DNA from: Ruditapes philippinarum
Lineage: Eukaryota
Direction of reading: 5' to 3'
Assembly (NCBI RefSeq): GCF_026571515.1
Contig: NW_026860356.1
Location: 124,001 to 188,000, forward strand
DNA: 64,000 nucleotides
The notes beneath the pieces were generated by a model. The model saw only the letters and a list, made by a program, of their open reading frames with translations, was not told the origin of the DNA and did not search any database. The first letter of the stretch is position 1; each line of letters opens with the position of its first letter. The translations under genes and the position numbers were made by a program. Shown here piece after piece: positions 1,200 through 63,811 of the stretch.

Positions 1200-1379
1200 C
1201 AATAACTCTTTGGCCAGATTCAAAATAGCCTTTGCGCCACCACTTCTCGCACGATGATTCATCGTCAGTCGTGCAATCACTTTCATCACTACCATCTTCA
1301 CAGTCACGCACTTTGTCACAAACCAGTTTATTATCTATACATCTATCACCATCACAGTGAAAAGAATCCCGACATTCCA
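1200..1379 (-). CDS. Exon, LDLa module + fibrinogen-like N-terminal motif
   Basis: [30 protein letters not shown], then [14 protein letters not shown]; gtaacg donor, so the gene continues. Confidence 0.9.
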
Positions 1380-4300
1380 CTTTAAAAAGGGAAAATGACT
1401 TGTTATATAATAAGCAATCCTTTAGTATATTTGTACATGTGCTGAAGCAAAAGAATGCGTTATGTGTACGCCGCAATGCATATGAGTTTAAAGAATGTGA
1501 ATAAATTTCGTTCGGAATGATGAAAGTGCAAAACGTTTAACTTACAACATTCAATTTCATCACTACCATCTATACAGTGCGGGATAGAGTCGCATCTTTT
1601 ACTGTCCTGTATACACTGTTTATTACCACAAACATATTCATTGAGACCGCAGTTTCGAAGTTCTGCAAAGTAACAAAGGAACCTAATACTATTTAAACAA
1701 GCATTTATCATAGTGTTGCAAGTAATCCATAAGTCCTCTACAGGTTAGAACCCAAGCATCATTCTGATGGGCCATTGGTCATTGAATTATGCCATAAAAT
1801 GAATGACATACAATAATGAGCTTAAATCTTTTGAGCTCTTAGTTTGTCTGTAATGTGTTACGTTTTCCTGCCTAATAATGAAATTATGTTTATACAAACA
1901 AATAATTAGCGGATCCAATTTTCTCAGGATGAATGTTTCAACTTTTCTCTATTTTAAGTAAATTTGTTGGAAAAATTCTGACTTAAAAGAGACCTCGGGA
2001 AACAGTTTTAAGGGACGACAGAGACACGAACATACGGACTTTCTGACGGTTATCTTTATGGACGCTAGATTTAAAACACTTGTCATAGTAGTATGATGTT
2101 GGATTTTTAAGTAAATGCTATAAAAATGAGGAAGTTTTAGTAAAAAATAGTTTCTAGAACAAAGTTTCAAGGGGGAGTAAATTCTGGAATTAGTTAAGCT
2201 AGAGTATTGAGACTTCTCCCAAATGATATGAGTGACACAATAAGACACATACATATGAAGTTTGAAGTAGATACATGAAGAAATAAAGAAATTATAAAAG
2301 AAACATCATTATTTTTCATGAAAATTGTCAGTTCAAGGGGCTAATTCTGATATTTTTATGATGTGATTGATAATCAGATTATTTGAAGTAAATACCTTAA
2401 GAAATAAAGAACTTCTAATGAAAAAGCATAAAAACTTGAAGATATCGCCGAAAGTTAGCGTGAAGGATAGTTTTCAATATTGTCCAAACATTTGCCATGG
2501 CAAATTGAAAAAAAAATAGAGATTGTACCCGTACCTATATTTTAAGTTTAATAAAAATATGTTCAGTATTTGTTGCGTTATCACGGGATCCAGTCTATGT
2601 GTATATTTGCCATATTTAAAAGCTTTTTGTTGCCAAAGCAAAAAAGACTAAAATAAATCCAAAATAGGAAGATAAAAAAGTTCATAATCTCCAGACTGCC
2701 ATCTACCCATATTTCAAGTTTAAATAGAAATATTTTCAGTACTTTTTGCATTATCAATGGATTTACTATATGTGTGAAATCAGCCACATTTTCAGTTTAT
2801 TTTTTCCATGGCAACACCATAGTTTTCAACTTAGGAAGAAAAGAACAAGACGTGCATAATTTCTAGACTGCAATTTATCCACATATCAAATTTCTTGCAA
2901 ATATTTTCAGCACTTTTTGCGTTATCGTGGGGTCCAGTTTTGTGGACAGACGGATGGTAAACCTTTTTTCCGGTAAACTCGGTAGGGGACTAATGAAAGT
3001 GTTAAATATAAAGTTATATACATGTATGAATATTTACATTCAGATTTCTCCAGAGAGTGAGTCGTTATTCAAATATATTTCATGAAACATAACTTTGTTC
3101 GATTGTCCCAGCACACTATTTGTTTCTTTTCAAAAAATCCTTGTGTTTCATAGCATTGTCTTTAAAACGTCACCAATTTTTATTTTATAAGCAATCATCT
3201 TAACATATAATACAATAAAAATTATTAAATAAATAAGGTAATTATAATTTTTAACGTTTCAACTAAACTCCTTTTAATTTTAACTACCTGCTTCATCGCA
3301 TTTATATTTCGTGTTATTTTGACACACTCGCACTCAATTAAAAATGATTCTTTTACAAATTTAATAATTTCATATTCTTACAAATGATAATCATGCATTG
3401 GACCAACCACATTTTTAACAATGTGACAATTTAATTTGTTTGAGACATGTTTTATCATAAAATATCGTACCACAAAATTCATCCTCTGCATTTGTGCAAT
3501 CTGGTTTGAAATCGCAGACCTGACCTAGTTTTATACAGCTTCCATCAGCACAAGCAAATTCGTTCGCATTGCAGTCTAGCGTAATGATTGAATGATTACA
3601 TATTAGTTAAGAAACAAAAAAAAACCAAACAAACAAAACCAAAAAATAACAACATTCAAATACTAGTTATGATTATTGAATATCGTGCACTATCTCCTTT
3701 TCAATAAAATACTAAGCTATGTATTGCATATACTATGCAATAAAATTGCAGCTACTAATAAAAGTTTGAACATTTGAAAAGGTTATATATCGTATTTTTT
3801 GTGGGGTAAAGACAAAAGTTTTAAGTGAGTCTTGATAGGCATATTTTCAATCATTCTTTTCCTATGAGAATTTTAGAATACAATTTTTGTCACTTTATGT
3901 CAGATGTACCGCTTCCCTAGAACAGATCGGATAGGAAAATCTTGGTACACACGGTATGTATCCGGATCATAAGAGCTTGATGATATGCAAGGCTCTGATG
4001 ATGAAAACAGACTCGAAGTCTCAAGGATAGTTCAAACATTGAATGCTGTCCTTTTTTCTTTTTTTCATCCCGTTTTTTTACTGACATTTTTCGAAGCGAA
4101 CATAAGCAACATGAACTTGTTTTTGATTTTTGCAGAGAGCAAAAAGATGCAAAAGCGAGAAGGATACTTGCTGGCTGAATTGAAATTGAAAAGTTAAGAG
4201 GTGGATTAAACTGAATAATTATGATTTTTTTAATATAGCCTTCAAGAAAATATATTAATAAATGATTTTTAATCAATTCTTATCTTGTTCTCAACCTTTT

Positions 4301-7300
4301 GGCTGTCGTCTGTACGTGCAGAAGTAGAGTTCATTCCATTCATGAACCAATTGAAAGAAAAAAGCAAATCATAAGGTGGGGATTCACATGTGTAAAAGTT
4401 CTTTGCTTGTAAACTTCCGGTTTAAATTTCAAGCTGAATCAATTTCGAATTGAAATTTAAACGGGACATGAAGTATATTGGATAACAAACTTTATACATG
4501 ATAGTTTAAAAATCAACATAAGAAATAATGCCGTAAATCAAAAACCACTGAGGCCCCATAAAATGCATAATGAAATGTTATAATGTACATATTAGCCTGT
4601 GTATTCTGTTTGGACGCCCTTCATAATATTTAGGTAGTCCTCTTTTCACATGCAGAATTGCAACACTTGTGGTAACCAATGTATTAAGAGACCTTGTTTA
4701 TAATATATAGACTACCCCCTCGCATTTTATTAGATGTAAAATGAATTGACTCGACTCCTTACAAAACGAAATAACCTGTGCCTTAAAGTATATTTACTTG
4801 ATAGATAGAATGAGTGAAAGAAATAACAGCTGAAACAAAATGAATATATCATAAAAAATTTCCTATATAATTATATATTTAAGTATGATCATGGTTTTAG
4901 ATAGGTCCCACGTAATTTATGCATATTTAGAGTTCACACATCTAGCCATCTTTTTATAAATAAGATCCTAAATATATATAAATGGGAAGGTGGATACTTT
5001 TAGAAAGATTAACAAAATGCGTCTAAGAGACTCTGAACATAACGATAAAAAGCTATCCTAGTCATTACCCAAAGACTTTCAAATGTAGCCAGCTTTTATC
5101 TTCGCTAAAGCCATCGATTATCCATCTCACATAGAGAAAATTTAAAATAAAGTAGTTTTACAGAACAGTTTTACCATAACGTGATTGTTAAATAACCAAT
5201 GAACTACTTTGTGGATTCAAAATTTCCACATTCTCTAGTTATTTTTACCATGATGCCGAGGCTTTCTGCAAAAATCCATGGCAGTTTTATTTTGCTAATA
5301 TTTGATACGAAAAATGTCAATCATAAACGAGATGAAAATCAGGTTAGTCCGCGACACAAAACATGATGCCCCTTTGAGGATCCCTTTCTTTATCCCAACT
5401 ATCACGGTTATCTCGGTAATTCATGTGAAAACTATGAACAGCCTAACTAAGACAAGAAGGCAAGGATGAGGAACGGAAAGGACAAAATCCATCTTGCGCA
5501 GAACGCTTTGGAAATAAAACCGGGCAGACAATATAGTATAACATAGCATTAGATGCTTTATACTTTTTAACTTTATGCTACTGTTCATGCAAACTCTAAA
5601 TAGTACTTTATTGCATATATGTCCTGAGTCTGAGTATAAATATAGAAAATACATGGTTGATGTCGGGATGGAGAAAGTTTATCCGGTGTTGGCGAGCTTT
5701 CGCAGCGAGCCGGATAAACCTTCTCCATCCAAACATCAACCATGTATTTGATTTATCCTGCTTTTTATCATGTTTTTAGAATTTAGACGTGTTCATATGG
5801 CGGTTATCATGGAATCTTCAATGTGACACTAAGTGCCATTCCATGAAAAGCGGCAAATGGTCCCCAAGTAAAAAAAATGCGTGTGCCCTAAACGAGAAAA
5901 CAATGGGCGGAACTAATTAAAAGGGAATTTTGAAAAGATATCAGAGGTTATGAAGCATATGCTATTTTATCGGGGAAAAAGAAGAATTAAACTATTTAAT
6001 TATTCTAAAAACATGATAAAAAGCAGGATAAAGATACTATAGTAGTTTAACAAATATTTCTAATATATAAAAAGTCATGAACAAGTTAAAAAAAGGTGAT
6101 TTAATAAATAAATCGAGTATCTCATCTATTAGGTTAACTCAAGGTATTCAAGTGAACATAAAAAACGTTACTGGTATCTAAAACTGTTTAGCCATAACCT
6201 TCTATTTCAACGCGATAACGTCAATTCTTCAAATGTTTAACTCACAATGCTTCCACTTTATCATTCTAAACTTATTAAAAAATAAACTATCTACAGAATA
6301 GACAAATTAAAATAGTACAATAAAAAGCCTTTGTCACCTGTACTTTGTCGTATACAATCGATTTCATCAGATGCATCTAAACAGTCTATTACAGTATCAC
6401 ATTTTGCAGCCATTGAAATCCATTCCTTACTACCACATTGATAATAGTTTCCTCCTTCATCGACCGATACGTTTAGAATAGTGGAGCTTAATTCAACGTC
6501 TCCTGCAAGCTCGTGATCTAAATAGTACAGAAAATATTAGTGTTACTATAAAGAAATTGGATGACACTTTTTTTCTCTACTATCCCAAAGTTTCATCGTA
6601 AAACAAGTGTCGTAAAATAGCTTCTATGCCAGTATTACTTATTATTGTAAAATAGATAAATACAAAATCCCTAAAGAAAGCCCAACACGGCAAAATTGAA
6701 AATGTTGCAGGCTCGGTTTGATTGAGCCTGTTCATGGACGGTACTGGAAAGTGCAAATTACCGTCCACGCCCCCTAGCACCGGCTTAAGCAGAATTCAAC
6801 ATTTAAACGTGAAATAGTAAAATTTTGAATTTAGAAACATCCGCAGATGTGTTCATACGGCGGTTATCATGGACATCCATGGACAGAATTCTTCAACAAA
6901 GTCGAGCATATCACGAAACTTAACAATATGCATAAGCGTACCTATTGTCAAAGGGTTTTGTATTTTTTTGCACGCGAAGTTACGCTTAGAATGTTTATGC
7001 ACGCCCACAAAAAGCCGGGCGATAAACAGACATCTACATATCATCTTTTTCCTTTTTGAAAAGCTGGTTAAAATCATTTATTTAGTCCATATTACGGGAA
7101 TGTGTATGACTCGCCAATACAGTTGTAAGGATATCTTTTATGTATATCTGTTATAGTGTTATTATTTTATATTGATGAATTATACAATATATTATATCGT
7201 AAATATATATAATTAACTGAAATATCAAAATAATTATCTCCTTTTTCTTATATAAGATTGCTAAAAAGTTAAACCATGTCTGAAGAATATTTTCGTATGC

Positions 7301-10300: not shown

Positions 10301-13300
10301 CCAGTAGTTGCAGAGAAGTAGTGCGGAAACGATTTTTACTCTATATTCATACTACATAACTAATCAAGGGCCATAACTCTGAGTTAAAGTGTCTGGCCGG
10401 AACAAGCCGACGATATGTGCATCTCCTCTTGATATTGATGATTCCCATAAAGTTTCGTTGAATTCCAGCCAGTAGTTGCAGAGAACTTCTCCGGAAACGA
10501 AATTCGGACGGACGGGGACGGACGGACAACGCCAAAACTATATCCCCCTCCCGATTCCATCGGCGGGGGATAAAAAGTATGTGCTGTGCTTCTGTGGAAG
10601 GGAATTAATTATTATGAATACATTAATAATATTCACGTTACAAATAGGAGCTTGTATAAGGAAAAGGTATGTATTAAAATTTGCAAATTTATGGAGATGA
10701 ACGAGTTGTATTGTGTTTAAAGTAACTAAAGTCAAAGTTGGGACAGAGTTAAATATTATGTATAAGTAAAAGTGTATACAGCAATACGAGTTCATTTGAA
10801 TATTTTGAAAAATTTCGGACAAAGAGTGCATTATCAAAGATGGAAAAAGTAAACGTAAACATTAAGGTTATAAAGGGTGTGCGTACACGGTATATTAATG
10901 TACTTGAAAAAGATATTAAAATTGGTTTGGACTAGAGTATAAAACTTACAAGAACAGGTTAGTGAATTTAGAAATAAAATTAAAACTTATGTCTTCTCAC
11001 TTATGTCGAAAAGTTGAGTGCTCAGTCAGAAAAATTAGCTTATGCCTTGCGGGGCTTAGATGACGATACAACTCAAACAATTATCGAAGATGATTCTGCT
11101 TTGACTGAAAGTGCTTTGACATTATCGCATAAGCTGCAGTTGTGTAAAGATGATCTTAAGGCATGAATAAAACGTAGAGAAACTGGACATTCTGTCAGTG
11201 ATAAGGCATTTCAAAGGATGTTTGATTTGCAGATAGAAATGCAACGAGACTTTTTCATTCAACAACAGGAAAAAGGTGAACGACAGTTTGAAATTCAAAC
11301 AAAACTAATGGATAAGCAAATATCACAAAGGAAAGAAACATCAGTCAAACTTTCAAAGCCACACATAGCATCGTTAAATAGAAATCGCTTACTTTGGATT
11401 GAGTTCTGGGACTCCTTTGAAAGTGCCGTTCACAAGAATGAAAGGTTATCTACAATAGATAAGTTTAATTACCTGAAGGAAAATGTTACTGGCGAAGCGA
11501 GAATTGCCATTGCGGGATTGACTCTTTCAAACGAAAATTATCAGGTTGCTATTAAAATACTTAGTGAGCGATTTGGAGACAAAAAAGAAATAATTTATCT
11601 CCACTATAACAGCTTGGCCTGCACATTCCTTTAACGTATCCACATGCCAAATTTGAGTTGATGTGTAATACCGTTGGGGAGAAAATGAACGGAAACTGAA
11701 AGTTTCATATTATTTTCAAAGTAAAAGGGGCATAACTCTGCCAATAATCATCAAACCATGCTTAAATTCGAACTTGACCTGTATTTTCTCATAACATATC
11801 CATATGTAAAGTTTGAGTTGAATGTGTAGTACCGTTTGGGAGATAATGAACGGAAACTGAAAAATTCATATTATTTTCATAGTGAAAGGGGCATAACTCT
11901 GCCAAAAATTATCGAACCATGATCAAATTCGAATTTGACCTGTATTTTCTCATGACATATCCATATGTCAAGTTTGAGTTGAATGTGTAATACCGTTGGG
12001 GAGATAATGAACGGAAACTGAAAATTTCATATTATTTTTTAAGTAAAAGGGGCATAACTCTGCCAAAAATCATCGAATCATGACCAAATTCCAAGTTGAC
12101 CTGTATTTTCTCATGACATATCTATATGCCAAATTTGACGGGAGGACGGAAGGACGGAACAGGGTAACACTATATACCACAGCCATTATATGGTGGGGGG
12201 CACAAAAATACTAAATTATAGCGTAGTTCCTACCTTCCAATGTGCAATTAACTTCGTCAGTTTTGTCTTCACAATGGAACGTTTTATCACATTTATTTAC
12301 CCATGGTATACGGCGACTGGTAGAGCTGCATACAAAAAAAACATCAGGAATGGCCATGGTCATGGAATCAGAACCAGAGGGTCCTCCTCGGCTCCTTGCC
12401 ACTGGCTCTTGTTGCTGGGTCGGGTGGGGGCTGCGTTCATTGAGCGCCGCCTTTCCTTGATGATCTTGTTTATCATATACTATATTGGGGGGAAAAGTTC
12501 TTGTTGAGTAAACATGTGTAAAATAAAGTTACTGATTAATGTGAAGAAAACACAACCCGATAAAAATGGTTTTGATTCAAAAGAAATGTACATGAAAATC
12601 ACAGACTCGAGATTGAGTTTTAATATGTATAACAAAATCTTCCAAATAAAATGGGTAAAATAGAAATAAAATGGAAACGTGATTTTCATTGTTGATTGTT
12701 ACTGAAATTTAAGCCAAAATCAAACTCATTTTAAACACCATTTAACAACAACAAAGGCGTACGTGAAAAGAAACATGGCTCCCAAGTCGACACGCTGTCA
12801 TTCACGTAACAACCCATTATTCCAGAGCGATAAGGGTCTTGACATAATGTAGAATTCTTCTTTAAGACTTCTTTTCGTCTGTCAAATGTTTTATTGAAAT
12901 GTATCAAAGCATTGTTCGTTAGATTACTCCAATTCTGGCACAACTTCCCGGAGTAGGAGTAATTTATTTTTGTTTTATTTCCTTCAGACAAAGTATTACA
13001 CTTGCTTTTCTTTGAGGCAACTGAAAATGAAAATGTTACAATATATTTATTTAAAAATCAGGTACGCCATGTCAAATTTGTACTTTTACTACAAATAGCA
13101 AATAGAGTGTTTTTAATTACTTCTGAAACAATATATACCAAAACATGTTTATAATATGCTTCCTTCATACTCAAACATATAAACAAAATAGGAACAATAA
13201 CCTATTTCGAAACGATAATGAAAGAGTTACATGTGTATAATAAAATTTTCAATGAAATTTATGTGATTTGCTGAAATACATTCAAATGTTCAAATGCGAA

Positions 13301-37300: not shown

Positions 37301-40300
37301 CATGTAATGAATATTCTATATTGTTGAAAAAAGTTTCTTGAGCATATTTTTTCATGTTGTTGACTTTCTTTCTTATTTGTTTATATTTGTCCCAGTCTGA
37401 AGTTTTATTAGAATTCACTGCTTTTTTTTTAATCTGTCACGTTTTCTTGATGTTCTACGAATTTCGTTATTATACCAGGGCTTATCATTAGTACGTACAG
37501 TTACGAAATATGTGGGTATACATGTTTTTGCAATATCAAGAAATTTAGTAATAAAATAGTTACATGCTGTATCAACTGAATTATCATGTAGAAAAGACTA
37601 ATCTGTTGTTTGTATACAAGTATTCAGTTTATTAAAATCAGCTTTTTTGTAATTCCACACACGACGTTTAAAGGGGGCATCAAATTTGAAATTAATTTTA
37701 ATATAAGCATATGTAGCATAATGGTCACTTATAGTATTGTCCGTTTTAAAAACTCCAGAGTCATGCAATAAAATATTATTAGAAATGGCAATGGGATCAA
37801 TTAAAGTACTTGAATGATCACTTACACGAGTTGGCTGAGTTATTATATTTGACATGTTGTTAAGATTAAGAATATCCTTAAATTTTCTATTGTTTGAGTT
37901 AAGTTGATCTTCATTTACATCCCCTACCAGAATAATATAATTACCTATTTCTGATGCCTTCTCAATGCATATGTTTAGTTTATCCCAAAAATCTACCCTG
38001 TAGTGAGGGGGTCTATATACAGTACATATTAGATATGATTTACTTTTGTCTTTTATTTTGAGCCAAATAGTTTCTGGGAGAAGAAATTCTAGATCAAATA
38101 ATCTTTCAGGTCTTAAGTGGGCTGAAGCATATAAAAGAAATCCACCAGAATGCGCAGTATTATCTTTTCTAAACATATAATCATAACCTTCAAGTAATAG
38201 AGTACTGTTATTTATATCTGTATAAAGGTGTGTCTCAGTAAAGCATAGCATATCAAAATCTAGAAAATTTTCCTTAATATATTGCATTTTATTTCTAATA
38301 CTGCGAATATTTTGATGTATAATAGAAAAGCAGTGGTCTGTATTATTTTCGGGGCCTGGATTAAGCTCAATATCCCCAGATAACAATAACAATCTAAGTA
38401 AAAAAACATTAATAATATATAGGATCATGTGATCAATACTTTGATATGAGTGATAGTTTAAGAAATTACAACTTAGGATGTTACTGTGGTAGTAAGTGGA
38501 GAATGTACATAGCAAGATAGTTATGATAAGAACACACATAATAGAATGAAAAATATCTTGCATATACACATTATAATTATGAATTTGTTTTAAAAAGTAA
38601 TTTTTTATCCGTATGTACTTATACATCTTGATTAAATATTGGTATGATTCAAAACAACTTGAATTTAGTACTCTCTGTCTGCAGTTATAATAAAGCCCTA
38701 TTGTTACTCTCCATAAAGTTATATCATTACCTATTAGGTAAAAGGTTTATATCAATAATTACTGAGAGCAAACAAAGGGCTTTATTACTTAGTGTATTTA
38801 TATCTAACATAGGGGACAGGCAACAAGGGAAACTATTTTGATTACTCATACAGAATAAGTTTACTAGAAATAGGATGAGTATTAACATATTGAAAAAGAG
38901 GGAAGATAATAAATGTTAATATATATATTATTTATAAAAAAAAATAAACTTAATAGATAGAGACTTCACAGTATTATACTGTGAATGGAATACAGATACA
39001 AATCAAATTTATTCAGGAAAATTTGGCAAGAGTATGGAAAAAGTACACAAGACTTAAGTTAAATGTATAAAATAAACAAAAACATTAACAAAGACAGTCA
39101 GGTAATATATACTAATAGTAGTACAGGCAGGTTAGACAGGCGGACGAACAGACATAAATATACACTCTACATGTACACAATTACAAAAAATTTACAACAG
39201 TCAGGTTAAATATACAGGTAGTAGTGCAGGCAGGAAAAACAGACAGACAGACGGACAGACACCAACAAACAGGTATGAGCTTAGAAATAACGGTATCGTA
39301 TAAAACATTTACGAAAAAACAGTGGGATAGCAAATCATGTTTTGATACTTGGAGCTAACAAAAACAAAAATATATTAACTTGTTAAATCTGAANNNNNNN
39401 NNNNNNNNNNNNNNNNNNNNNNNNNNNNNNNNNNNNNNNNNNNNNNNNNNNNNNNNNNNNNNNNNNNNNNNNNNNNNNNNNNNNNNNNNNNNNNNNNNNN
39501 NNNNNNNNNNNNNNNNNNNNNNNNNNNNNNNNNNNNNNNNNNNNNNNNNNNNNNNNNNNNNNNNNNNNNNNNNNNNNNNNNNNNNNAATGTGTTTATGCT
39601 AATGTGATTACTTTTGATAATAAATCGTCTGCTAATAATATAAACAATTACAGGTAAATCTATTTGCATAGTTTACACAGTGTAGAGGCGTGTCTAAAAA
39701 TAGCAGTGTTACTATATATATAAGTATGTATTGATGTCAATATCTAGCGCACTCGATGTCAATAAAAACCTGTCAAAAAGACAGCACTTGTCACAAGGAT
39801 TATAACTTGTTTCGAATTTCTTGAATGTCGTCCATGTGCTTAATAAGGCAACTTTTTGTTGCTCCAGTAACCTGAACATAGACTCTACATCCCGCTATCC
39901 AGGTTTTAGTTATTAATTTGTCTCTTTTTAATTGCCGTGCTTGGAAGGATAGATTTTCTCTCAGCGGTGTCAAGTTTTCTTGGACAAAAATGCCATGGGA
40001 TATCTCTTTCCTAGCGTTATATACCCGCTGTCTTGCTTTCGAATTGGTGAACTTAACGATCACTTTTCTATTATAATTGTCTTTGGGTTTACCTTTTCGG
40101 TGGCACTTATCAATATCGCTGCTACTCAGCTGAATACCTCTTTTCTTGGCCTCTGCAAGAATTTTTGATTCTACATTCTCTTCATTGCTGCCGGTATCTC
40201 CTGGAATGCCCGAAATATCTAAGTTCATACGACGACCGTATTGAGCCAATTCGTCTTGATCCATCTCAGATGTCTTTAAGTCTGATTTTAAAGAGGCTAC

Positions 40301-43300
40301 TTCAGCCCTCAAAGCACTTACTTCATCTTTCAACATTTTTGTCTCTTCCTGTATAATATTGATGAATTCACCCCTTAGCTCTTTAATAATTTCTTCTTGC
40401 AACTGGACTTTAAGTTCTTTAATAAGCTCAGGTGCTAGTTGTGAACTTAGTTCTTTAATGTCTGCTTGACTGAATTTTGACATTTTTGTTTGTGAAGTGG
40501 GTGGGGATACAAGTATATCTGGCTGTTTTTCTACCTCAAAAAATTCACTAAGACCACTCTCTTTTTCTGGCGTAGTTTCAATGTTCAAAAATCTTAAAGG
40601 TTTATGTTTTTGATTGAATTGTCTTGACCAGGTGAAGATTTATTTCTATTTCTTTTCCTATTTCCCATTTATCTTTCTGAGTAGATGTCACAATTGTGGT
40701 GTGTAAATAGTCAGTTATATATCATTTGGTCACTGGGACAACTCATTACATTACATAATCAAGTTCGTTAGGGTTTCTTGTACCTGACACTATAGACTCA
40801 TCTAGAAGTTTAGCCTCCAAACCTTTCAAAAAACTACATTTTCAAAATTTTCTTTGTCTGGGAAAAAAACTCCGACATTTTGTTTTGACCGGAAGTAGCC
40901 AATCAAATTTAATCTTACATAGCGTCAAAAAACCTTCAATTTTCACGCCATTTTTAAAAAGCAGCAAGTTTTATTTTGAGCGCAAAGATATAATGATGAT
41001 TATAATGTTTGTTTTCATGAATTCTTTTCAATAAATCATATTTACACTGACTTTTGATTTAGCGATTTCACCTGTTCCTCTGTAGTAAGTTTTCGTTTGG
41101 TTAATAAACGTAAGTGTACATCTGGTTCTGTGCATTTTTTTCTTTTTCCTTTTTTCCGGTCATTTAATCCTTTCCGGTATTAAGTGTATATATTTACTGG
41201 CCGGGATCCGGGACGCCCCGGATTGGCCGGGATCCGGGATCGTATAAGATATAGAGGAAAAACTAATAAACTATATTTGTGTTGATTATTGTCGTAATGA
41301 AAGGCCATTAAACGTTAAGTTTTTTTATTGTATGTAATAAACGTTAAATTAATTAAGCTTAGGATATAAATATATTAAGAGCTATTTATTAACAAACTTA
41401 AAATGCGGAAATCACAATACTTATAATTATATGCCTAATTAATTGGAAAAATCAAAGACTACATTCTTGAATTAGTCAAATCCCGGGACCCCTTTATGTT
41501 TTAATGCGATCCCAGCTTTTCTGAAAACTATATTCTTGAACTGGCCAATTCCTGGGATCTCTTTATATTTTAATACGATCCCGGCTTTTCTGAAAACTAA
41601 ATTCTTGAACTGGTCAATTCCCGGGATCCCTATATGTTTTAAAAGGATCCCGGCTTATCTGAAAAACATCTTAGACTGGTCAATTTCCGGGGTCCCTATA
41701 TTTTTAATAGGATCCCGGCTTTTCTGGCTGAATTGATAGACAACTTGTGTTTACTTTAGGACTTGTGTCTGTCACTCATTCCAATACTAAATAACATATT
41801 ACGACTTAACTTCGTATAAAGAGACATCTTTATGAATTCTACCTATCTAACATTTATTTGGTCAAGGTCAACAGGCCATACAGTAAATGTGCATAGACAT
41901 AGGGACTTCATTCTATCTGTTTACATGCATCTTCATATATACTCATATTCCTCTTTGTTAAACTGAGAGAACTGGCTTCCATAACTTCATGTCACTTTAT
42001 TTTGATGTTCGCTGAAGTCTCTTCAGCTAACAGAACTGTCATTTTTACATTTAAACGCACCCCTGGAAAAAAATTAAGAAGCGAGTCGCTACTAGCTTTT
42101 TTAAAAACTAACCTTGTGATTATTTACGACTGTTTTGTTTCAAATCATTTTCCCTTTTGCACGACGCCATATTGCTTTCAAAGCGTCTATTGATACAGCT
42201 GGGACCTACTTATTGACGGTCTCCGCAAAATTAACGGTCTCTGCTGGTCTTTAAGTCCGTCGACCTGAGTAGACAAATCGACGGTCTCATGCTGTATTGA
42301 CATGGCTTAGTCGGTCATTGGAGGCCGGGGACCGTCGAAGACCGGAGACCGTTGATTATTTAGCATTGATTTGGAAATATTCGGATAACATGCATATCGA
42401 TATAATTTGTCCAAAACAACGAGCGTACGACTGATAAATTTTGCGATGATGAAAATGACAATTCGCACGGGTTTTTAAGACAATTGCGTATTTTTTTTTT
42501 TTAATGGGTTTTGATACGCATTCTTAAAAAATCAATTGAGTATTTTCTGAAATTAATTGCGTAAATACGCAAATACGCACCTTATCTGTTGCTCTGGAAT
42601 CCATAATTCTTTTATGTAGATGTAATGTTATCTGTCAAAAATCAAGCCAAACATCAATGTAGGAATATCTCTGAAGGTTCTTTTTATGCGCAAACATAAC
42701 ATTTTTACTTTCTTATCAATCAAGTTAAAAATAGTAACGAAGTGTCTAAAGGTCAACCTTAAAAAAATGAAATGTTTAAAGCTGTTTAAAATAACAAACT
42801 GATTAATAAAATGATATAAGATGATCAATATCCTTATGTACATCTTTAAATTTCGAATTAAAATATATTACGAGTTCATACATATTTACCAAAAATATAC
42901 GACTGTTTATTTTAAAAGTACACTTATACTGGGTTATTTTTTGTCGAGCGTTCAGTTGGAACATATACAAATAACGTTGTTATTATAAACCTAATAAACA
43001 TAATTTTATAAGCATTCATTGCCTTTATATGAGTCGATCTTCTGTTATTTGGAGGGGCGTCCGTGGCCGATTTGTTAAGGCCGTTGACTTAAAATCAATT
43101 GCATCTCACCGCTTTGGTTCGAATCCCAACAGGGACTTTTGATTCTTTATTGTCAGGAAGTCATCCAGCTAGCTTACGAAATGTCAGTGGTTCTACCCAG
43201 GTGCCCGTTCGTGCCTGAAATAATTTCTAAAATGCCACCTCAGGTCTTTCTGCACAAGAAAAGCTAGAAAGCCAATATAAAACCTATATTGTGTTGGTGC

Positions 43301-46300
43301 GAAGGTAAACGCCAACGAAAAAATAACAATGGATTAATATTAAGTAGATAAATTGCTGGTATTTAATACAGTGCCTTATCGAGTCTGATTAGCAAGCACA
43401 TTTGGAGCTTGAACTTTATCACAAAGTACAAGGTTTGTGCGGGTCCGTTGGAATAATGATTATAGTTATGGGATTTTAAACACGCTTGCGTATCTTAAGG
43501 GGATATAAAAAGATTCGGTCACATGACGAAAAAGGTCTTATCATTGGTTTAAAAAATTGGCACAAAATTAAAACAATGAATTGTGCACGTGCTAAAAATA
43601 CTAAAATGTATAGAAACATATACTTACTTCTTTTTTCTCATTGAAAACCATTTCAATTATAGACACATGCATAGAACGCCGCAAGTCAATTTGATACCTT
43701 TCAAGGTAAGCGTACTTATCTAAAATTAGTGACATCAAAATTGTTCATCAGCAAAACAGAATGTTTTAATTGTTATATTAATGAAAAAGATGTAATTTTG
43801 TTTACAATAAATAGATATTTAAATATTTCGATGCTGAACTTTGATATATTTAATCCTGGAATCTTTTGTTTAACTGGTATGATATATAACTTAACCTGGA
43901 ATAATTGTTTAAATGGTTTGTTAAAATCATACCGGTACGTTTTGAATCAATATTCCAAACCAAGTCGAAGCCCGATACCAACCCTGTAAAATAAGTCATT
44001 TAAATTACTCACATATTCATAAGAAAAATTATAAAGAAGGCGCTTAACTCCCTTTTAAAAGTGAGATATAAGAAAGACAATACCAAGATACACTTTTGAT
44101 AAGTCAATAAAAATAGCATGGATGAGAAAAGACTGCTAACAAGCCTTGAGTTTGAATGAAAACATTTATTTATCGAAAAATATCTACTAGTTAACTAACT
44201 GACACAAAACGTTTCACTATAGTTATTAAAATAAAGTAAGATGTGTCATATTAGAGAAATAAAGTACAATAATTTCAAGTCAACATCATAACGTTTTATG
44301 TTATTTCCTTTCTTCTACATATTATGAATGACAGCAAGCAATTTAATACATACGTGCCGGACTTCCAGCCTTATCATCAGCAACTGAAACATACAAATGT
44401 TAATGTAGCATAAAGTGTATTCTTTCATACATACAAAGTCTATGAAACAAGAGCATCTCTGAAATCATACTGACGCGATTGTGAATACATTCAACTGCAT
44501 TCAGCATACCAATAGTCTCGACTGTGAATTAATTTAACATTAGATGATGTTACAATCACTTTTTGCTTTATATGTTAAATTGACTGTGAATATTGCATAA
44601 CAAAATCAACATGTCGTCCTAAAACATGTTATTTCGTGCTTTTTTCCACTGAATGTTATGTCAGAAACAGATAAGTCTGTGACAAAGCTTAAGATCAACA
44701 ACAGATAAAATATGTATACTATATATCAACGTGGTGAGGTAGAAGATAAACAGTAATGTAAAGTTTGGAATGTACGAGAAATGTTGTAACCTTGGACAAT
44801 GCCGCAGAAATAGTTTTTCTCTGTAGAAGAAGTGGACATTGGACACATGGTTCCTTTCTGTAAGACAAATATTCATATATCGATCTTTAATATTGATTTA
44901 TACATGACTGTTTTCAATGTTCAAATGCAAATGGTATTCAAAAAATAAAAATAAGATAATATTGTTTATAAAATACTCATGAGTGATTAAATAATGGTTG
45001 TTATTATAAAACGATTAGATCAATTTAAGTCATGAAGTTTTTGATGTAATAAGATGTTAATTACAAGAATAATCAGTGATCACATGTGTCGCCTCATGAT
45101 AGCCATAACTCAGCAAAATATCATTGAACCTAAGAAACTGTGTAATATGCACAAGAACTTGAGCTATCAATCAATCCTGTAAAGTTAAACTGAAATTGCA
45201 TTAGTGGTAAAACAGGAGTAGTCCAGACAAATTTCAAAATTAAAATCATAAAAGGGACAAAACTATCTGACAAAAATTAATGAACCGCAAAATGTTGATG
45301 AGATGCACAACCAGACATGGCATTGATCAGTCCCCTAAAGTTTTATAAAAGTGCACCAGTAGTTTCTGCAGAGTAGTCCAGACAAACTTCTGTGTAGCTG
45401 GCAACAATAGAATATTCAAGAACAATAACTTAAGATCATTCAACTGAAAAGTGAAAACTTGAGTACATGTATTATGCAAAAGTAATTGACCTACCAATAA
45501 ATCATGTAAAGTTTCATTAAATTTGCATATATGGTTATGAGGAGTAGTCCGGACAATCTTAATTTACACCCTTTTTTATTCAAGGGCCATGATTCGGCCA
45601 AATGGTATTCAAAAAAATTAAAAGTAAGATAATACTGTTTATAGGCTACTCATGGGTGATACAATAATACAGAGAACCCGTGTAATATGCGCAAGTACTG
45701 GACCTACCAATTGATCCTGTAAAGTTTTTCGTTGAAATTGCATTAGTGGTATAAGAAAAGTAGTCCGGACAAACTTTAAAAAAATAGAAATAATTAAATG
45801 GCCATAACTCTGACAAATTTCATTGAACCTTTAAAAAGCCGATTACATGCACAACTGGACTTGCTACTGATCATTGTAAAGTTTGAATGAAATTGCACCA
45901 GTAGTTTATTTTTGAGAAGTAGTCCGGACAGCTTCTGTATATCTGGCATCACACAAACTACCTTTTTCTTTCCATAACCCGGTTAAAATCATTCAACCGA
46001 AAACCCCGTGCAATATGCCCAAGAACTCGAGCTAAAGATAAATTCTGTTAAGTTTCATTGACATTGCATCAGTGGTTAAAGAGAAGTAGTCCGGACAATC
46101 TTTATTAATAACAATTATAAAAGGGTCATGACTCTGACAAAAATCATTTAACCGGAAAATGCCGACGATATGCACAACTATACTAGGTACTGATTATTTC
46201 TATAAAGTTTGGATGAAATCGCAATAGCAGTTTATGAGAAGTAGCCCGGACAGGTTTTGTGGTGGACGGACAGACGGACAGACAGACGACGTAGAAGTGA

Positions 46301-49300: not shown

Positions 49301-51310
49301 GAATGAAATTGCACCAGTAGTTTATTTTTGAGAAGTAGTCCGGACAGCTTCTGTATATCTGGCATCACACAAACTACCTTTTTCTTTCATATTTGCATAT
49401 CTTAAGTAACATCACTTTAAATAATAAGAATATCTTATTTAAAAATAATTAAATCACATAAACCTATGATCCACCCACTAATTTTAATCTTAACAGAACA
49501 AAATATAAAAATGTAGTTTGATACATAAAAAAGTATAAAAGGAAAGATGTTTTAAAATAAAGGGAGGTAACATGCATATATATTGTGAGGAAACATATTG
49601 ATAAATTTATACATTGTAATCTCCCTTTGTAAGGAGTGTGACATTGGACATGACCCGAGAAAGTTCACACCTGCGCTCTGCACATCATCTCAGTAATATT
49701 TTTATTTCTGCCAAAATTATTTATTTTCTACAATCGGTTTATAAGATAAAGAATATTGTAATTGATACAAAATAACTAAATGTGACCTTGACCTGAGGAA
49801 GGCCAACCTTCACTCTGCACATGGTCTAATTGTGGTTAGCATTTCTGCAAAGTAGTTTCAATTTTCTTCCACTGGTTCAAAAGATATAGACCAGACACGA
49901 AAACTCCTATGTAAGTATATAAATCAATTAATCCCCGGGACGGGGTCAAATTTGATCTCAGTAAGCCCGAACCTGTGTTCTTCAAACCGTCTCATTATAT
50001 GTATTTTTTCTGCAAAAAGTTTAAATTTCTTTCTATCTGTTCAAAAGTAACAGAGCGGACACAATTGATTTTGAAATTGATACAAAATGACTTAGTTTGA
50101 CCTTAACCTTGACCTTAGAAAGGTCAACTCTGCGCTCTGCACATCGTCTCAATATTGTAAACATTTAGTTTCAATTTCCTTCCACCGTTTCAAAAGTTAC
50201 AGACCGGAACGAAACCAGTAAACAGACGGACGGACAATCAGGTGCACAACATTATACGCCGATATGTTGTTTCAGAGTTATGTCCCGGACAAGAAAAGAC
50301 GAAAATACATCCGGACTGACAAAATGGCGACTGTATGTTCACCCTTCGGGAAGCATAAAAACAGTGTTTTCTATGAACAGAGGTTTTTATTCATTTGAAG
50401 ATATCTTTGTAAAAACCAATTTCATAATATAAGGTGTTTATAACAGAGCGTGTCATATCGTACTGTATGTTATTTGTTATCATAAATAAAATAAAAAAGA
50501 AAACCTGGCGGGCATTTCTCTCCAATCTTGTAAATTGTATATCTTCCAGGAATCCAACTTTCTGTGTCTAGTTTAGTATCATGTCGCACTTTAACACATA
50601 GCTTTATTTGGCTCTTCTTCTGCTTTGCATGTTTATTTTTTTTAATTCTCATATCTAATACGCTCTGTGTCCATCCACGACTCTCAGACTCTGGACACCC
50701 GTATTGTGACATAGGAATTGCAAATGGACCCGGAGGCCATAGACTTGCCTTGTCCTCTGACCCTGTTAAACAAAAGGGTCATTGTATTTTTATTTGTAGA
50801 AGGTTGGGCAACTGGTCAAAACTATTAATCTTTAGTGTTTTTTTTTTCAACCTAGATTTCATTAAAATAACAATAATAATATAGTTTATATTGTACTGCT
50901 AGGGAAATATATTCAAGCCAATGCGGTTCAGATCATTCGTGTCAATAGCACGAGCTTCACCGTGACTATTCAACTTAAGATGTCTTTTAGTTATATGATA
51001 TACCTATATATAATATCTTTATCTATAACGCATATCTTATCCTTTAGTTTTCAAAATCTAATAACACATATTGATTCATCACAATATTATAAAAATAAAA
51101 GATAATTGACGTTGTGTACAAGGTCAAAAACACGCAAAACAAATAAGGAATAATAAAATTGAAATGTACTTTAAATAGATACATGTAAACGTATACATAT
51201 TTATTTTTTACCTTTGCTTATATTAAGCGCCTCGCACAAGACATTGTCCGATATTTGTTTGCATCTAGAATATTGAAAGTTCGTATTTTCCTCAACAAAC
51301 TTCTGCTTTG
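1200..51310 (-). CDS. Multi-exon (29 exons found) mosaic extracellular/receptor-type protein: ApeC-like, 2x F5/8C, 2x CUB, C-type lectin, kringle, 5x LDLa, FReD-like start; partial at both ends
   Basis: Hand-joined exons all have AG/GT boundaries and compatible phases and translate without stops. Domain motifs continue across introns. Small exons may be missed or mis-bounded. Confidence 0.85.
1546..1662 (-). CDS. Exon, LDLa module
   Basis: [35 protein letters not shown]. Confidence 0.92.
1717..2996 (+). mobile_element. Helitron-like non-autonomous element (HINE/pearl type), degenerate
   Basis: Decayed internal tandem units; GGAC/AGAC microsatellite; end CGGTAGGGGACTA, complementary to AGTCCTCTAC near 1732. 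Confidence 0.55.
3471..3575 (-). CDS. Exon, LDLa module
   Basis: [34 protein letters not shown]; not in the ORF track. Confidence 0.9.
5647..6032. repeat. Double-foldback element (Crypton-like non-autonomous candidate)
   Basis: 40-bp near-perfect inverted repeat 5647-5686/5710-5749, then a perfect ~30-bp inverted repeat 5753-5782/6002-6031. Confidence 0.65.
6338..6517 (-). CDS. Exon, LDLa module
   Basis: [30 protein letters not shown]; not in the ORF track. Confidence 0.88.
8538..10576 (+). mobile_element. Nested HINE carrying a 168-bp satellite array
   Basis: About 9 highly similar 168-170 bp units (9010-10500); (GGAC)n; terminal hairpin ATCCCCCTCCGA..TCGGCGGGGGAT; matching subterminal motif near 8560. 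Confidence 0.85.
10840..11610 (+). mobile_element. BEL/Pao LTR retrotransposon gag fragment (DUF1759-like), decayed
   Basis: [13 protein letters not shown]...DKFNYL...GEA...I.GL.LSNENY..A...L.ERFG; stops/frameshifts upstream. Confidence 0.85.
12234..12479 (-). CDS. Exon, low-complexity linker + LDLa module
   Basis: FVC...[18 protein letters not shown]. Confidence 0.87.
12763..13020 (-). CDS. Exon, kringle-like domain
   Basis: SGKLCQNW...CQDP...GCYV...WEPC six-Cys kringle pattern. Confidence 0.87.
13686..13840 (-). CDS. Exon, C-type lectin domain C-part
   Basis: WAIGEP...DC...C...YFICQ. Confidence 0.85.
14997..15075 (-). CDS. Exon, C-type lectin domain middle
   Basis: GL...YVWLN...FSPW; phase 1-2. 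Confidence 0.85.
15379..15597 (-). CDS. Exon, C-type lectin domain N-part
   Basis: CYKIF...SWSKAGSVC...LVTIQSPKE...HIG. Confidence 0.9.
16139..16262 (-). mobile_element. Degenerate SINE fragment related to the 43054 SINE
   Basis: TTCCTCACATGACAATGTCCAAAGTCCC resembles the reverse complement of the 43130-43160 body. Confidence 0.4.
16330..16362 (-). CDS. 33-nt micro-exon ([11 protein letters not shown])
   Basis: ttttag/gtactt boundaries, phase 1-1. Confidence 0.6.
16521..16728 (+). mobile_element. tRNA-derived SINE with 9-bp TSD
   Basis: A-box TGGTCGAGGTG, B-box GGTTCGATCC, (AAAC)n tail; TATACAAGA at 16512-16520 and 16729-16737. Confidence 0.85.
17266..18398 (-). mobile_element. Decayed mariner transposon
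   Basis: Imperfect TIRs CGAG..TGATCAA..GTTCT flanked by TA; transposase remnants [28 protein letters not shown]...[11 protein letters not shown] and [13 protein letters not shown]. Confidence 0.9.
18736..18975 (-). CDS. Exon, CUB-like domain 2 C-half
   Basis: [13 protein letters not shown]...LLIVF...GFRLHY. Confidence 0.87.
19380..19586 (-). CDS. Exon, CUB-like domain 2 N-half
   Basis: FRIRA...[10 protein letters not shown]; ttttag/gtaagc boundaries. Confidence 0.82.
19788..19992 (-). CDS. Exon, CUB-like domain 1 C-half
   Basis: GCDDKL...LVITF...RFRA; ttcag/gtaagt boundaries. Confidence 0.85.
22583..22785 (-). CDS. Exon, CUB-like domain 1 N-half
   Basis: IMSIGYP...CYSWII...[10 protein letters not shown]; ttcag/gtaaga boundaries. 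Confidence 0.85.
22892..23490 (+). mobile_element. Short HINE, same family as the 7468 element
   Basis: Shared 5' end and internal units; ends ATGGCGGGGGCATAAAAA. Confidence 0.75.
24348..24605 (-). CDS. Exon, acidic Ser/Asp/Thr-rich linker
   Basis: tacag/gtgaga boundaries; [15 protein letters not shown]. Confidence 0.8.
25093..25249 (-). CDS. Exon, second F5/8C domain C-part
   Basis: ITARLIKL...CLQFEIHGC canonical end. Confidence 0.88.
27467..27610 (-). CDS. Exon, second F5/8C domain middle
   Basis: [14 protein letters not shown]...SFRLLYG; ttttag/gtaatg boundaries. Confidence 0.85.
27965..28131 (-). CDS. Exon, second F5/8C domain N-part
   Basis: [21 protein letters not shown]...SRPSSTGW...PWI is the canonical discoidin start. 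Confidence 0.88.
32667..32788 (-). CDS. Exon, end of first F5/8C-like domain ([11 protein letters not shown]...)
   Basis: tttcag/gtaagc boundaries; ARYI motif; phase 2-1. Confidence 0.75.
33585..33694 (-). CDS. Exon, F5/8C-like ([12 protein letters not shown]...GRLLLR)
   Basis: tttcag/gtactg boundaries; phase 0-2. Confidence 0.75.
35078..35175 (+). other. tRNA-like Pol III cassette, antisense within the LINE 3' region
   Basis: AACCAGA/TCTGGTT stem, A-box TAGCTCAGCCGGTAGAGC, TCAGG/CCTGA T-stem with an insertion, oligo-T. Confidence 0.6.
35198..38626 (-). pseudogene. LINE ORF2 (2A - AP endonuclease - reverse transcriptase - C-terminal CCHC-like)
   Basis: [48 protein letters not shown]; broken by stops at 37598 and 36765 and frameshifts near 37425 and 36075. 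Confidence 0.93.
38351..38392 (-). other. 2A-like StopGo motif [14 protein letters not shown]
   Basis: Exact D(V/I)ExNPGP consensus immediately before the APE domain. Confidence 0.85.
39394..39586. other. Assembly gap (193 N)
   Basis: N run. Confidence 1.
39800..40668 (-). pseudogene. LINE ORF1 (coiled coil + RRM-type)
   Basis: [30 protein letters not shown] motifs; probable ATG at 40668 with one frameshift before 40588. Confidence 0.85.
41464..41726. repeat. ~68-bp tandem repeat, ~4 copies
   Basis: ATTCTTGAACTGG..ATTCCCGGGATCCC..GATCCCGGCTTTTCTGAAAA recurring. Confidence 0.75.
43054..43329 (+). mobile_element. tRNA-derived SINE (MetaSINE-like bivalve family)
   Basis: A/B boxes (GTGGCCGA..., GGTTCGAATCCC); body GTGGTTCTACCCAGGTGCCCGTTCGTGCCTGAAATAAT; A-rich tail. 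Confidence 0.8.
43628..43719 (-). CDS. Exon, F5/8C-like ([31 protein letters not shown])
   Basis: ttttag/gtaagt boundaries; QIDL motif; phase 1-0. Confidence 0.7.
43933..43983 (-). CDS. Exon, F5/8C-like ([17 protein letters not shown])
   Basis: ttttacag/gtatga boundaries; ARL...W motif. Confidence 0.65.
44354..44383 (-). CDS. 30-nt micro-exon ([10 protein letters not shown])
   Basis: tttcag/gtatgt boundaries, phase 1-1; gives SPARL with the next exon. Confidence 0.65.
44471..44521 (-). CDS. Small exon, start of first F5/8C-like domain ([16 protein letters not shown])
   Basis: ttcacag/gtatga boundaries, phase 1-1; alternative acceptor at 44494 possible. Confidence 0.55.
44776..44857 (-). 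CDS. Exon ([22 protein letters not shown]...)
   Basis: tcttacag acceptor, phase 0 start; donor position uncertain. Confidence 0.5.
45063..46340 (+). mobile_element. HINE with diverged ~160-170 bp tandem units
   Basis: Recurrent GTAGTCCGGACA/CATAACTC units; (GACA/GACG)n; TGTGTCGCC (5') complementary to GGCGACACA (3'). Confidence 0.8.
46595..46713 (-). CDS. Exon, ApeC-like continuation ([15 protein letters not shown]...FKLIK)
   Basis: cag acceptor, gtaacg donor, phase 1-0. Confidence 0.65.
46880..46963 (-). CDS. Exon, ApeC-like continuation ([28 protein letters not shown])
   Basis: ttttag/gtataa boundaries; completes CPPGF. Confidence 0.75.
48324..49510. repeat. Local duplication: copy of ~45005-45972 placed between 119-bp direct repeats
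   Basis: 48324-48442 matches 49392-49510 almost exactly; 48436-49388 matches 45005-45972. Confidence 0.85.
49600..50360 (+). mobile_element. HINE-like remnants (TGACCTTGACCT-type units and Helitron-like 3' ends)
   Basis: Repeated CTCTGCACAT.GTCT units; GACGGACGGAC; CACCCTTCGGGAAGCATAAAAA end. Confidence 0.55.
50505..50762 (-). CDS. Exon, apextrin C-terminal (ApeC)-like domain
   Basis: [16 protein letters not shown]...[18 protein letters not shown] matches the repeated WPxG..Y...CP pattern of ApeC domains; phase 1-1. Confidence 0.8.
51212..51310 (-). CDS. Exon (most 5' one located): [33 protein letters not shown]
   Basis: tttttag acceptor, gtaaaa donor, phase 1-1, open frame joining the next exon. 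Confidence 0.7.
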
Positions 51311-51389
51311 CTAAAAATGGAAAGAAAATCTAAACATTACCGTTGAATGGAATTCGATACGATTAAAATCAAAGGAAACAAAATATATA

Positions 51390-52227
51390 TGTCACAGGGT
51401 TAGAAAAATGTGCAGCCTGACCGGGACTCGAACCCGGGACCCTCGGAATACCGTACCGCGGCTCTACCGACTGAGCTATCCGGCCGCTTACACATTTTCT
51501 CCCCTATATAGTGAACAGCTTTGAACCGTGACATACTCCCCCTGCTATATAGAAATGCGTCCTCGAATTTCACATAGTTACAGAGCAATGTGAATTAAAC
51601 TCTAATCTGTATTCAGTCACGGCCCCACGTTGGGCGCCATTTGTCGCAGTCCACTCTTACGATATGGGAAAGGTGCTGCTAAGAGGTTCTGGGCTTGAGG
51701 GTTGCTATAAAAATACAGAAATACGCTCTCAGAAAATATTTATTATCGATGAATACGAAGTCTGGCTCGCGCCATGAAAATCTTCAGTAGGAGTGCAAAT
51801 ACAAAATAATGACAAATGACATAAAATCATGAATGGCAAAATGTAGAATAACAAGTATGGGATCAATACAGACATTCATATTTACCTATAAAAATACAGA
51901 AATACGCTCTCAGAAAATATTAATTATCGATGAATACGAAATCTGGCTCGCGCCATGAAAATCTTCAGTAGGAGTGCGCATGCGTGAAGGTACTTAGTGC
52001 GGAAATAGAATATTTAAGATTGAGGCCCGTACCAATGGTTAGAACATACTTGTTAATAAATGAATGAATGAAGAAATGAATGAATGAGTAAATGAATAAA
52101 AGGATGAATGTATGGAATATAGGAAAAGGACACAAATATAGGACTTCACATAATCTACGGTGTACAATACGGGACATACATTTACAAATAACATCTAACA
52201 TTAATACATCAATATGACCCTGCGACA
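51390..52227 (-). mobile_element. Miniature LTR element (Helenus-like TRIM) with two different LTRs
   Basis: 5' LTR 52227-51642; PBS-Lys 51639-51622; PPT 51546-51534; 3' LTR 51533-51390 with tRNA-like insert; TATA on both flanks. Confidence 0.85.
51413..51485 (-). other. tRNA-like sequence inside the 144-bp LTR (not a functional tRNA)
   Basis: Intact A box, B box, D- and T-stems; mismatched anticodon stem; followed by T5. Confidence 0.85.
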
Positions 52228-55919: not shown

Positions 55920-56142
55920 ACCGGACTGGGGTTGTGGCCAAAACTTCAGTCATTTGTAAAAATACTAGGCCAATATGTGACATTACTATGACAAAATGTG
56001 ACACACAGTGTTCACAAATTAGTGAAAACACTGAAAACACAAACCTGATAAATGTTAGTTTACCAGAAATTGAAAACATAAACATTGTTCCGTTAAAAGT
56101 ACTTTAACGTCTGAACATTCAAATACAAATAAACAAAACACT

Positions 56143-63098: not shown

Positions 63099-63397
63099 TC
63101 GTGGCCACGAGTAACTAAGTCGTGGCCACGAGATAGCTTAGTCGTAGCTACGAGATACTATGTCGTGGCCACGAGTAACTAAGTCGTAGCTACGAGATAC
63201 TATGTCGTGGCCACGAGAAACTAAGTCGTGGCCACGAGATAGCTAAGTCGTGGCCACGAGTTACTAATTCGTGGCCACAAGTTACTAAGTCGTGGCCACG
63301 AGATACTATGTCGTGGCCACGAGTTACTAAGTCGTGGCCACGAAATAGCTAAGTTGCGGCCACGAGATACTATGTCGTGGCCACGAGATAGCTAAGT
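63099..63397. repeat. 21-22 bp minisatellite with palindromic core TCGTGGCCACGA, 14 units
   Basis: Directly visible. Confidence 0.95.
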
Positions 63398-63782: not shown

Positions 63783-63811
63783 GTCTACGATATTTTTGGA
63801 CAACCCTCGTA
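63783..63811. mobile_element. Mariner-type TIR end
   Basis: GTCTACGATATTTTTGGACAACCCTCG-TA, similar to the end at 1003-1032. Confidence 0.45.

Follow-up and report, generated by a model that had tools for sequence, protein, structure and literature searches.

The 64,000-nt stretch of Ruditapes philippinarum DNA analysed here (the window; GC 32%) carries, on the minus strand from position 51310 down to 1200, 27 exons whose translation matches residues 33-1340 of RefSeq LOC132759785 isoform X2 exactly (hereafter P0002, a predicted gene model of 1462 aa). All 27 exons are AG/GT-bounded and phase-compatible, and join into 1308 codons with 0 stops; the ApeC exon is 100% identical to P0002. The multi-exon, phase-compatible gene proposed here by a first-pass annotation is thus confirmed. 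When an optional symmetric exon missing from RefSeq X2 is added, 28 exons are obtained (4185 nt, 1394 codons), with the frame kept and 0 stops. A tblastn search of the window with 16 homologs gave no further credible exon, the few non-exon matches being weak and the best of them corresponding to a LINE (E 0.008). The original count of 29 exons and 1417 codons is therefore reduced to 28 and 1394. A signal-peptide exon was searched for in 51311-64000 and none was found; the first 31 residues, including the hydrophobic signal stretch, are encoded outside the window.

Several exon candidates were rejected. A 66-nt phase-1 candidate (49188-49123) would give 4251 nt, that is 1417 codons, and we guess that it possibly explains the earlier count; it lies within a ~970-nt intronic repeat, duplicated at 96%, which is a source of false exons of this size. 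Other 66-nt candidates (45773-45708, 12059-11994, 11898-11833 and 11737-11672) are all in repeats. The match of the P0005 N-terminus at 20171-20127 (tblastn) is intron sequence common with a paralog and not a conserved exon. Two short fragments, P0043 and P0055 (76-100% identical), considered as splice-junction evidence, are both single-exon read-throughs. The optional exon sits where homologs bear a Cys-rich insert, PAN-like by eye, the core Cys of which it has lost. Its assignment as a PAN domain was discarded, as the family HMM gave no match. In global alignments to four homologs, its score was beaten by 17, 214, 547 and 75 of 1000 shuffles, so that its homology rests on its position and on both exon ends.

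Table 1 Features of the window (positions 1 to 64,000).
Feature	Position	Strand	Evidence or remark
Exon 1 in the window	51212..51310	-	RefSeq residues 33-64; N-terminal Cys-containing segment
ApeC, N-terminal half	50505..50762	-	Pfam PF16977, E 1.2e-12, profile 1-96/208
Rest of shortened, degenerate ApeC	46963-46880, 46713-46595, 44857-44791	-	Homolog alignment
30-nt linker exon	44354..44383	-	Oyster and scallop homologs have a kringle-like stretch at the same place
Discoidin-like 1, first part	43983-43933, 43719-43628	-	ESM Atlas and alignment
9,933-nt intron	33695..43627	-	Inside discoidin-like domain 1
Discoidin-like 1, second part	33694-33585, 32788-32667	-	ESM Atlas and alignment
F5/8 type C (discoidin) 2	28131-27965, 27610-27467, 25249-25093	-	Pfam PF00754, E 7.4e-11
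Optional symmetric exon, 258 nt, phase 1-1	24348..24605	-	Missing from RefSeq X2
CUB-like 1	22785-22583, 19992-19788	-	Aligned to Pfam CUB of P0014 and P0013
CUB-like 2	19586-19380, 18975-18736	-	Aligned to Pfam CUB of P0012, P0010 and P0038
33-nt linker exon	16330..16362	-	RefSeq X2 match
C-type lectin-like domain	15597-15379, 15075-14997, 13840-13686	-	Pfam E 0.003, below gathering cut-off
Degenerate kringle, 5 Cys	12763..13020	-	Pfam E 2.4e-5, below gathering cut-off
Linker and LDLa 1, 4 Cys	12234..12479	-	Pfam and Cys count
LDLa 2, 4 Cys	6338..6517	-	Pfam and Cys count
LDLa 3	3471..3575	-	Pfam
LDLa 4	1546..1662	-	Pfam
LDLa 5 and first residues of fibrinogen/COLFI-like module	1200..1379	-	Module runs past position 1
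21-bp array	63095-63401		Inverted self-similarity
Ty3/gypsy-type fragments	54077-57051	+	Fragmented gag, zinc knuckle and aspartyl protease ORFs, upstream of exon 1
tRNA-like sequence	51412-51485	-	ARAGORN tRNA-Pro; Rfam 44.5 bits
tRNA-like sequence	43059-43137	+	ARAGORN tRNA-Pro; Rfam 31.7 bits
~970-nt intronic repeat	48436-49388, 45005-45972		96% duplicated
Broken LINE	35201-40639	-	In the 9,933-nt intron; ORF1-like, endonuclease, RT; same strand as gene
193-N gap	39394-39586		Interrupts the LINE
Mariner-type transposase remnant	17400-18170	-	Intronic
161-bp repeat	11632-12138		3 copies
DUF1759 fragment	11167-11631	+	Intronic
168-bp satellite	8835-10500		About 10 copies

Repeats and mobile-element remnants are also found in the window (Table 1). 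The Ty3/gypsy-type fragments probably lie inside the first intron of the gene, and the two tRNA-like sequences are possibly SINE heads. The DUF1759 fragment is presumably of BEL/Pao type.

From the N-terminus, the modules are a shortened ApeC (residues 73-231, P0002 numbering), a discoidin-like domain (252-375), an F5/8 domain (~381-530), two CUB (554-667 and 672-805), a C-type lectin (CTL, 829-970), a kringle (986-1063), five LDLa (1113-1316) and the start of a fibrinogen/COLFI-like module (from 1323, leaving the window at 1340). This order was confirmed with Pfam, ESM Atlas and homolog alignment; the mosaic is real and had been correctly read. The folds are assigned from sequence and ESM Atlas evidence; when the whole protein is scanned, the Pfam cut-off is reached by just ApeC, the second F5/8 and LDLa. 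Discoidin-like 1 has no Pfam match; it is linked to F5/8 clusters in ESM Atlas (0.94), with 159-164 shared features, fewer than the 170 typical for true family members, and aligns with a scallop F5/8-like stretch. The family profile of discoidin 2 matches neuropilin and factor VIII in the PDB. Both CUB calls are transferred from homologs whose CUBs pass Pfam, and the CTL shares 75 of 124 residues with the one that Pfam finds in P0006. All five Pfam LDLa stretches of P0002 are encoded in the window, type C2 LGRs being defined by more than one. Regarding the fibrinogen-like module named in the first-pass annotation, its start is present (about 18 residues inside the window), while its identity is a lead from the atlas (0.86 with COLFI/GON/fibrinogen clusters), with no Pfam match in P0008 and a weak family HMM match to a fibrinogen-bearing protein (E 0.1).

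The 9.9-kb intron had been named as the place where a single polypeptide might break into separate genes. This intron splits one domain, discoidin-like 1, which makes such a break unlikely. Moreover, P0007, P0009, P0017 and P0047 align continuously over the junction, and P0020, a full-length, 7TM-bearing protein of the clam type, matches residues 73-666 with a single HSP. A two-gene layout, in which a short secreted ApeC protein would be encoded before the intron and a discoidin-CUB-CTL-LDLa protein by another gene after it, would fit the annotation of a close paralog or allele as two models. The ApeC model of that pair, P0003 (304 aa), stops exactly at the intron junction; its identity is 90% over the ApeC exon and 81% over residues 1-300. 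Such a layout would also fit the assembly gap in the intron and the report that bivalves commonly have ApeC proteins of the short, secreted kind (PMC9585378). However, the ORF1 and EN/RT parts of the intronic LINE flank the gap in proper order, suggesting correct scaffolding, and single ApeC-to-7TM chains are known in oysters and scallop. Two genes are thus very unlikely, and one gene appears much more likely than two, in keeping with the single polypeptide first proposed. Weak Pfam matches on the LINE ORFs (RTX_C, BLYB; below cut-off) were discarded as noise.

A search with residues 240-1110 returned 5 proteins. Two of the 4 non-self matches, P0006 and the Mercenaria homolog P0007, end in LRR and 7tm_1; the other two (P0005, P0008) are Ruditapes models ending early. 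P0006 (R. philippinarum, 1942 aa) is the nearest full-length paralog, 58.8% identical over residues 508-1394. A phmmer search against 1.84 billion representatives gave 158 matches, of which 150 were listed; among the 30 that were Pfam-scanned, 5 family members carry 7tm_1 and 2 proteins combine Pfam ApeC with 7tm_1. One of these two, the oyster protein P0038, served as query for a further search, which retrieved 11 oyster, scallop and mussel proteins. ApeC and 7tm_1 are found in one chain in 9 of these 11 (Ostrea, Saccostrea, Crassostrea, Mizuhopecten), together with F5/8, CUB, CTL and LDLa, and in 8 cases with Pfam LRR too; the exceptions are the Mytilus model P0166, without 7TM, and a Pecten model without ApeC. 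One member, P0164, has its 2377 aa encoded on a contig of 7,353 nt, too short to hold introns as well, and is presumably transcript-derived.

LRR, a type C hinge and a 7TM are present in P0006, P0007, P0010, P0020 and P0069. By regular expressions, the hinge pattern is found in 13 and the ECL2 motif in all 15 of the 15 members that bear a 7TM. Of the family members longer than 1290 aa, a count from which five unrelated F5/8 or CTL proteins were left out, 15/17 show the ECL2 motif, those without it being P0002 itself and the Mytilus model. The resemblance to GRL101-like LDLa-LRR GPCRs seen by the first-pass annotation is therefore supported by the nearest full-length paralog and by the bivalve homologs. 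In contrast, the architecture, for which that annotation knew no described protein, is not unique: it recurs as a bivalve family already in databases, the Mizuhopecten (scallop) member is named “G-protein coupled receptor GRL101” in NCBI, and the clam gene itself is in RefSeq as uncharacterized. A serine protease end, raised at the same time, has general precedent in CUB/LDLa/kringle proteases. However, no protease domain was found in the 47 homolog-search proteins that were Pfam-scanned (4 + 30 + 13) or among the precomputed domains of the 11 proteins of the P0038 search, and the chance of such an end is practically negligible.

For the shared ectodomain, a quick ML tree was built with 21 rows, leaving out P0017, too short in this region, and the 28-exon join. 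P0002 and P0005 are sister to P0006 and P0008 with an SH-aLRT of 100, P0007 joins these four at 97, and oysters and scallops form a distant group beyond a long branch. Mapping the presence of a 7TM gave 6 changes versus 7.1 for shuffled labels; this absence of clustering is uninformative since many rows are fragments. P0003 with P0005 and P0004 with P0008 appear to be split models of at least two more R. philippinarum loci, each pair being on contigs of matching length (206,290 and 515,198 nt), which brings the assembly to about four family copies or alleles. The module content varies across the family. WSC follows the kringle in Mercenaria P0007, P0013 has two kringles, P0044 has TSP1 before the CTL, and oysters have a kringle-like stretch after ApeC (P0038). 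The clam-type P0006, P0007, P0010 and P0020 carry an insert of ~170 aa between the LDLa repeats and the LRRs, vWA-like by eye and with no Pfam match, which is missing from oyster and scallop members. Residues 2281-2323 of P0164, in a conserved cytoplasmic tail after TM7, give a weak protein-kinase-like Pfam match (E 0.045, below cut-off); this may be a degenerate kinase-like tail.

Since its full-length relatives carry LRR-7TM, the gene is likely to specify a bivalve class A GPCR of the GRL101-like kind (type C2 LGR), with the exons in the window covering most of its N-terminal ectodomain. The complete protein, of ~2,300-2,500 aa, would comprise a signal peptide, ApeC, two discoidin-like domains, an optional Cys-rich insert, two CUB, CTL, kringle, the LDLa array, the fibrinogen/COLFI-like module, more LDLa, LRRs, the hinge and the 7TM. 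It is quite likely that the locus retains its own LRR-7TM exons past position 1, where the first-pass annotation expected a 7TM; paralog P0006 and the bivalve homologs support this, but not the model of this locus. RefSeq X2, 1462 aa long, reaches neither LRR nor 7TM, and its homology stops near residue 1402. Its last 60 aa are rich in F/I/L/Y (47% vs 22%), an intron-like composition suggesting that the model is probably incomplete. A truncated paralog with no 7TM of its own, either a secreted ectodomain (decoy/opsonin-like) or a decaying GRL101-like duplicate, is quite unlikely. It would explain why RefSeq X2 stops in the fibrinogen/COLFI-like module, with P0005, P0008 and Mytilus P0166 also stopping before the LRRs; in addition, the recognition motifs are degenerate and snail clusters are described as containing truncated GRL101 genes (PMC12297450). 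However, the three Ruditapes models end at three different intra-module points on contigs of 0.2-0.5 Mb, a pattern of incomplete annotation, the tail of P0002 resembles intron read-through, and no stop or frameshift interrupts the 28 exons.

The recognition modules of the clam copy have diverged. Pfam covers ~1-96/208 of its ApeC, which aligns to full ApeC over 147 positions and is devoid of the C-terminal part. It has 5-6 Cys and no DXED, as compared to 8-10 Cys in the oyster, scallop and mussel homologs, where ApeC is complete (1-208/208) with at most one DXED. By Pfam, alignment and Cys count, the clam domain thus departs from the ApeC hallmark of about 200 aa, eight Cys and three DXED motifs (PMC8361754), although amphioxus ACP5 is reported to bind microbes without intact DXED (PMC8361754). 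P0002 also has no equivalent of the kringle-like stretch that oysters have after ApeC. In the CTL, EPT and LES replace the QPN and WHD of oyster homologs, and no WND-like motif is found. Canonical Ca-dependent sugar binding by CTLs involves EPN/QPD and WND motifs, from which the window CTL differs at both places. With ApeC, CTL and kringle all degenerate, the “multi-lectin sensor” first imagined fits the oyster copies better than clam LOC132759785. Binding of proteins or altered ligands, or a role as spacer, appears more likely for this venerid copy than binding of canonical peptidoglycan or mannose/galactose.

The type C2 LGR class is already known and defined (PMC4079206, PMC8660763), its function being stated as undetermined in PMC8660763, and GRL101 has been reported as expanded in R. 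philippinarum (PMC6831834). Lymnaea stagnalis GRL101 and the clam family homologs share multiple LDLa, LRRs and a relaxin-receptor-like 7TM. In Lymnaea, however, 12 LDLa are described (10.1101/2021.04.15.440029), compared to five here and 6-7 Pfam stretches in full-length clam relatives. In addition, the clam LDLa are preceded by ~1,100 aa of ApeC, discoidin, CUB, CTL and kringle, and the array is interrupted by the fibrinogen/COLFI-like module; for the clam gene, LRR-7TM is known from homologs alone. In the Biomphalaria sudanica schistosome-resistance locus SudRes2, CTL-LDL-LRR GRL101 genes are clustered (PMC12297450). As in the clam family, a lectin fold precedes LDLa-LRR-7TM and the genes are multi-copy, some truncated. 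A role in host-pathogen recognition is proposed for these GPCRs, while the validated variant lies in the neighbouring Zn-RING-IAP gene and not in a GRL101 gene (PMC12297450). In contrast to the clam family, CTL alone is described there, without ApeC, discoidin, CUB or kringle.

The ApeC domain is common to the clam protein, amphioxus ACP1/2/3/5 and oyster CgACP1. The characterised ACPs are, however, described as short and secreted, with a C-terminal ApeC binding peptidoglycan, whereas the clam ApeC is N-terminal, shortened and without DXED. Molluscan ACP groups 8/9, with more than ten extracellular-type domains (PMC9585378), may include the clam family; the text of that paper, Figure 1B apart, mentions no GPCR, 7tm, LDLa or LRR. 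In PMC10140915, CTL proteins of bivalves are mentioned that also contain apextrin, CUB and WSC domains, and lancelet fucolectin-CTL-CUB-ApeC proteins are shown in PMC12373286. No description of an ApeC-headed GPCR was found in the literature texts searched, a set without figures and most subscription journals; the figures of PMC9585378, PMC10140915 and PMC12373286 may already draw this architecture in print.

The best structure match of the paralog 7TM is RXFP1 (E 5e-64), followed by LHCGR (2e-34). The hinge and ECL2 of P0069 align with RXFP1. In this type C1 LGR (PDB 7TMW), a hinge Ser, a hydrophobic pair and a Cys-x-Pro-Leu-type motif of ECL2 are aligned with their clam counterparts; on the other hand, RXFP1 has one LDLa and a known peptide ligand, and two residues are inserted in the clam ECL2 motif. 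In RXFP1, ECL2 is reported to serve as a tethered agonist held in check by the LRRs and the hinge, with LDLa required for activation (10.1101/2022.01.22.477343). As the clam relatives keep the LRR, hinge, ECL2 and LDLa parts, we infer that an RXFP1-type relay could operate. The long stalk would bind a polyvalent extracellular target away from the membrane and move the membrane-proximal LDLa-LRR-hinge unit, so that ECL2 would activate the 7TM as in RXFP1. This relay would be driven by whatever the stalk or the LRRs bind.

A microbial or particle surface glycan, mucus or a matrix protein can be put forward as ligand class, tentatively. Short ApeC proteins bind peptidoglycan (PMC8361754, PMC9585378) and, together with the snail CTL-GRL101 cluster, this makes surface or microbe sensing our best guess for the family, a weaker one for the clam copy. 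In its full form, this idea would make the family a conserved, duplicated set of class A GPCRs acting as pattern-recognition receptors in their own right. Capture of peptidoglycan, or of another glycan on microbes or particles, by the ApeC-discoidin-CUB-CTL stalk would then gate the relaxin-receptor-type 7TM directly. Lineage-specific module swapping (kringle position, WSC, vWA-like insert, optional exon) would tune specificity, with the clam locus as a member of divergent specificity; as a whole, this scheme is somewhat unlikely. A doubtful but plausible alternative is that an insulin/IGF-like peptide or a chemosensory cue acts at the LRR/LDLa of the GRL101-like GPCR, the lectin-like stalk being a spacer or matrix tether. 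GRL101 has indeed been proposed as an IGF receptor (bioRxiv 10.1101/2021.04.15.440029), although as a hypothesis on a single-copy canonical GRL101, whereas the present family is duplicated within species. Sensory expression is reported for expanded GRL101 genes in apple-snail tentacles and palps (PMC6573481) and for a starfish GRL101 gene in sensory tentacles (PMC6267866), the 7TM is nearest to RXFP1, and the lectin motifs are degenerate in the clam copy. However, ApeC is still full-length in the oyster and scallop members, and their CTL retains a QP-/WH- signature.

Overall, LOC132759785 is no isolated case: it belongs, as a divergent clam member, to a family of giant GRL101-like GPCRs in bivalves, and it mainly shows fast ectodomain remodelling. 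The oyster members are better test objects, as their ApeC is intact and a full chain presumably derives from a transcript. The ApeC proteins characterised so far are soluble, and type C2 LGRs are orphan receptors. A family carrying a peptidoglycan-binding fold and several other lectin-type folds on a GPCR offers a direct, testable link from microbe or particle recognition to G-protein signalling in filter feeders. These lectin-fronted receptors echo the lectin-GRL101 cluster of the snail schistosome-resistance region, and the bivalve family is a candidate for direct sensing of microbes or surroundings.
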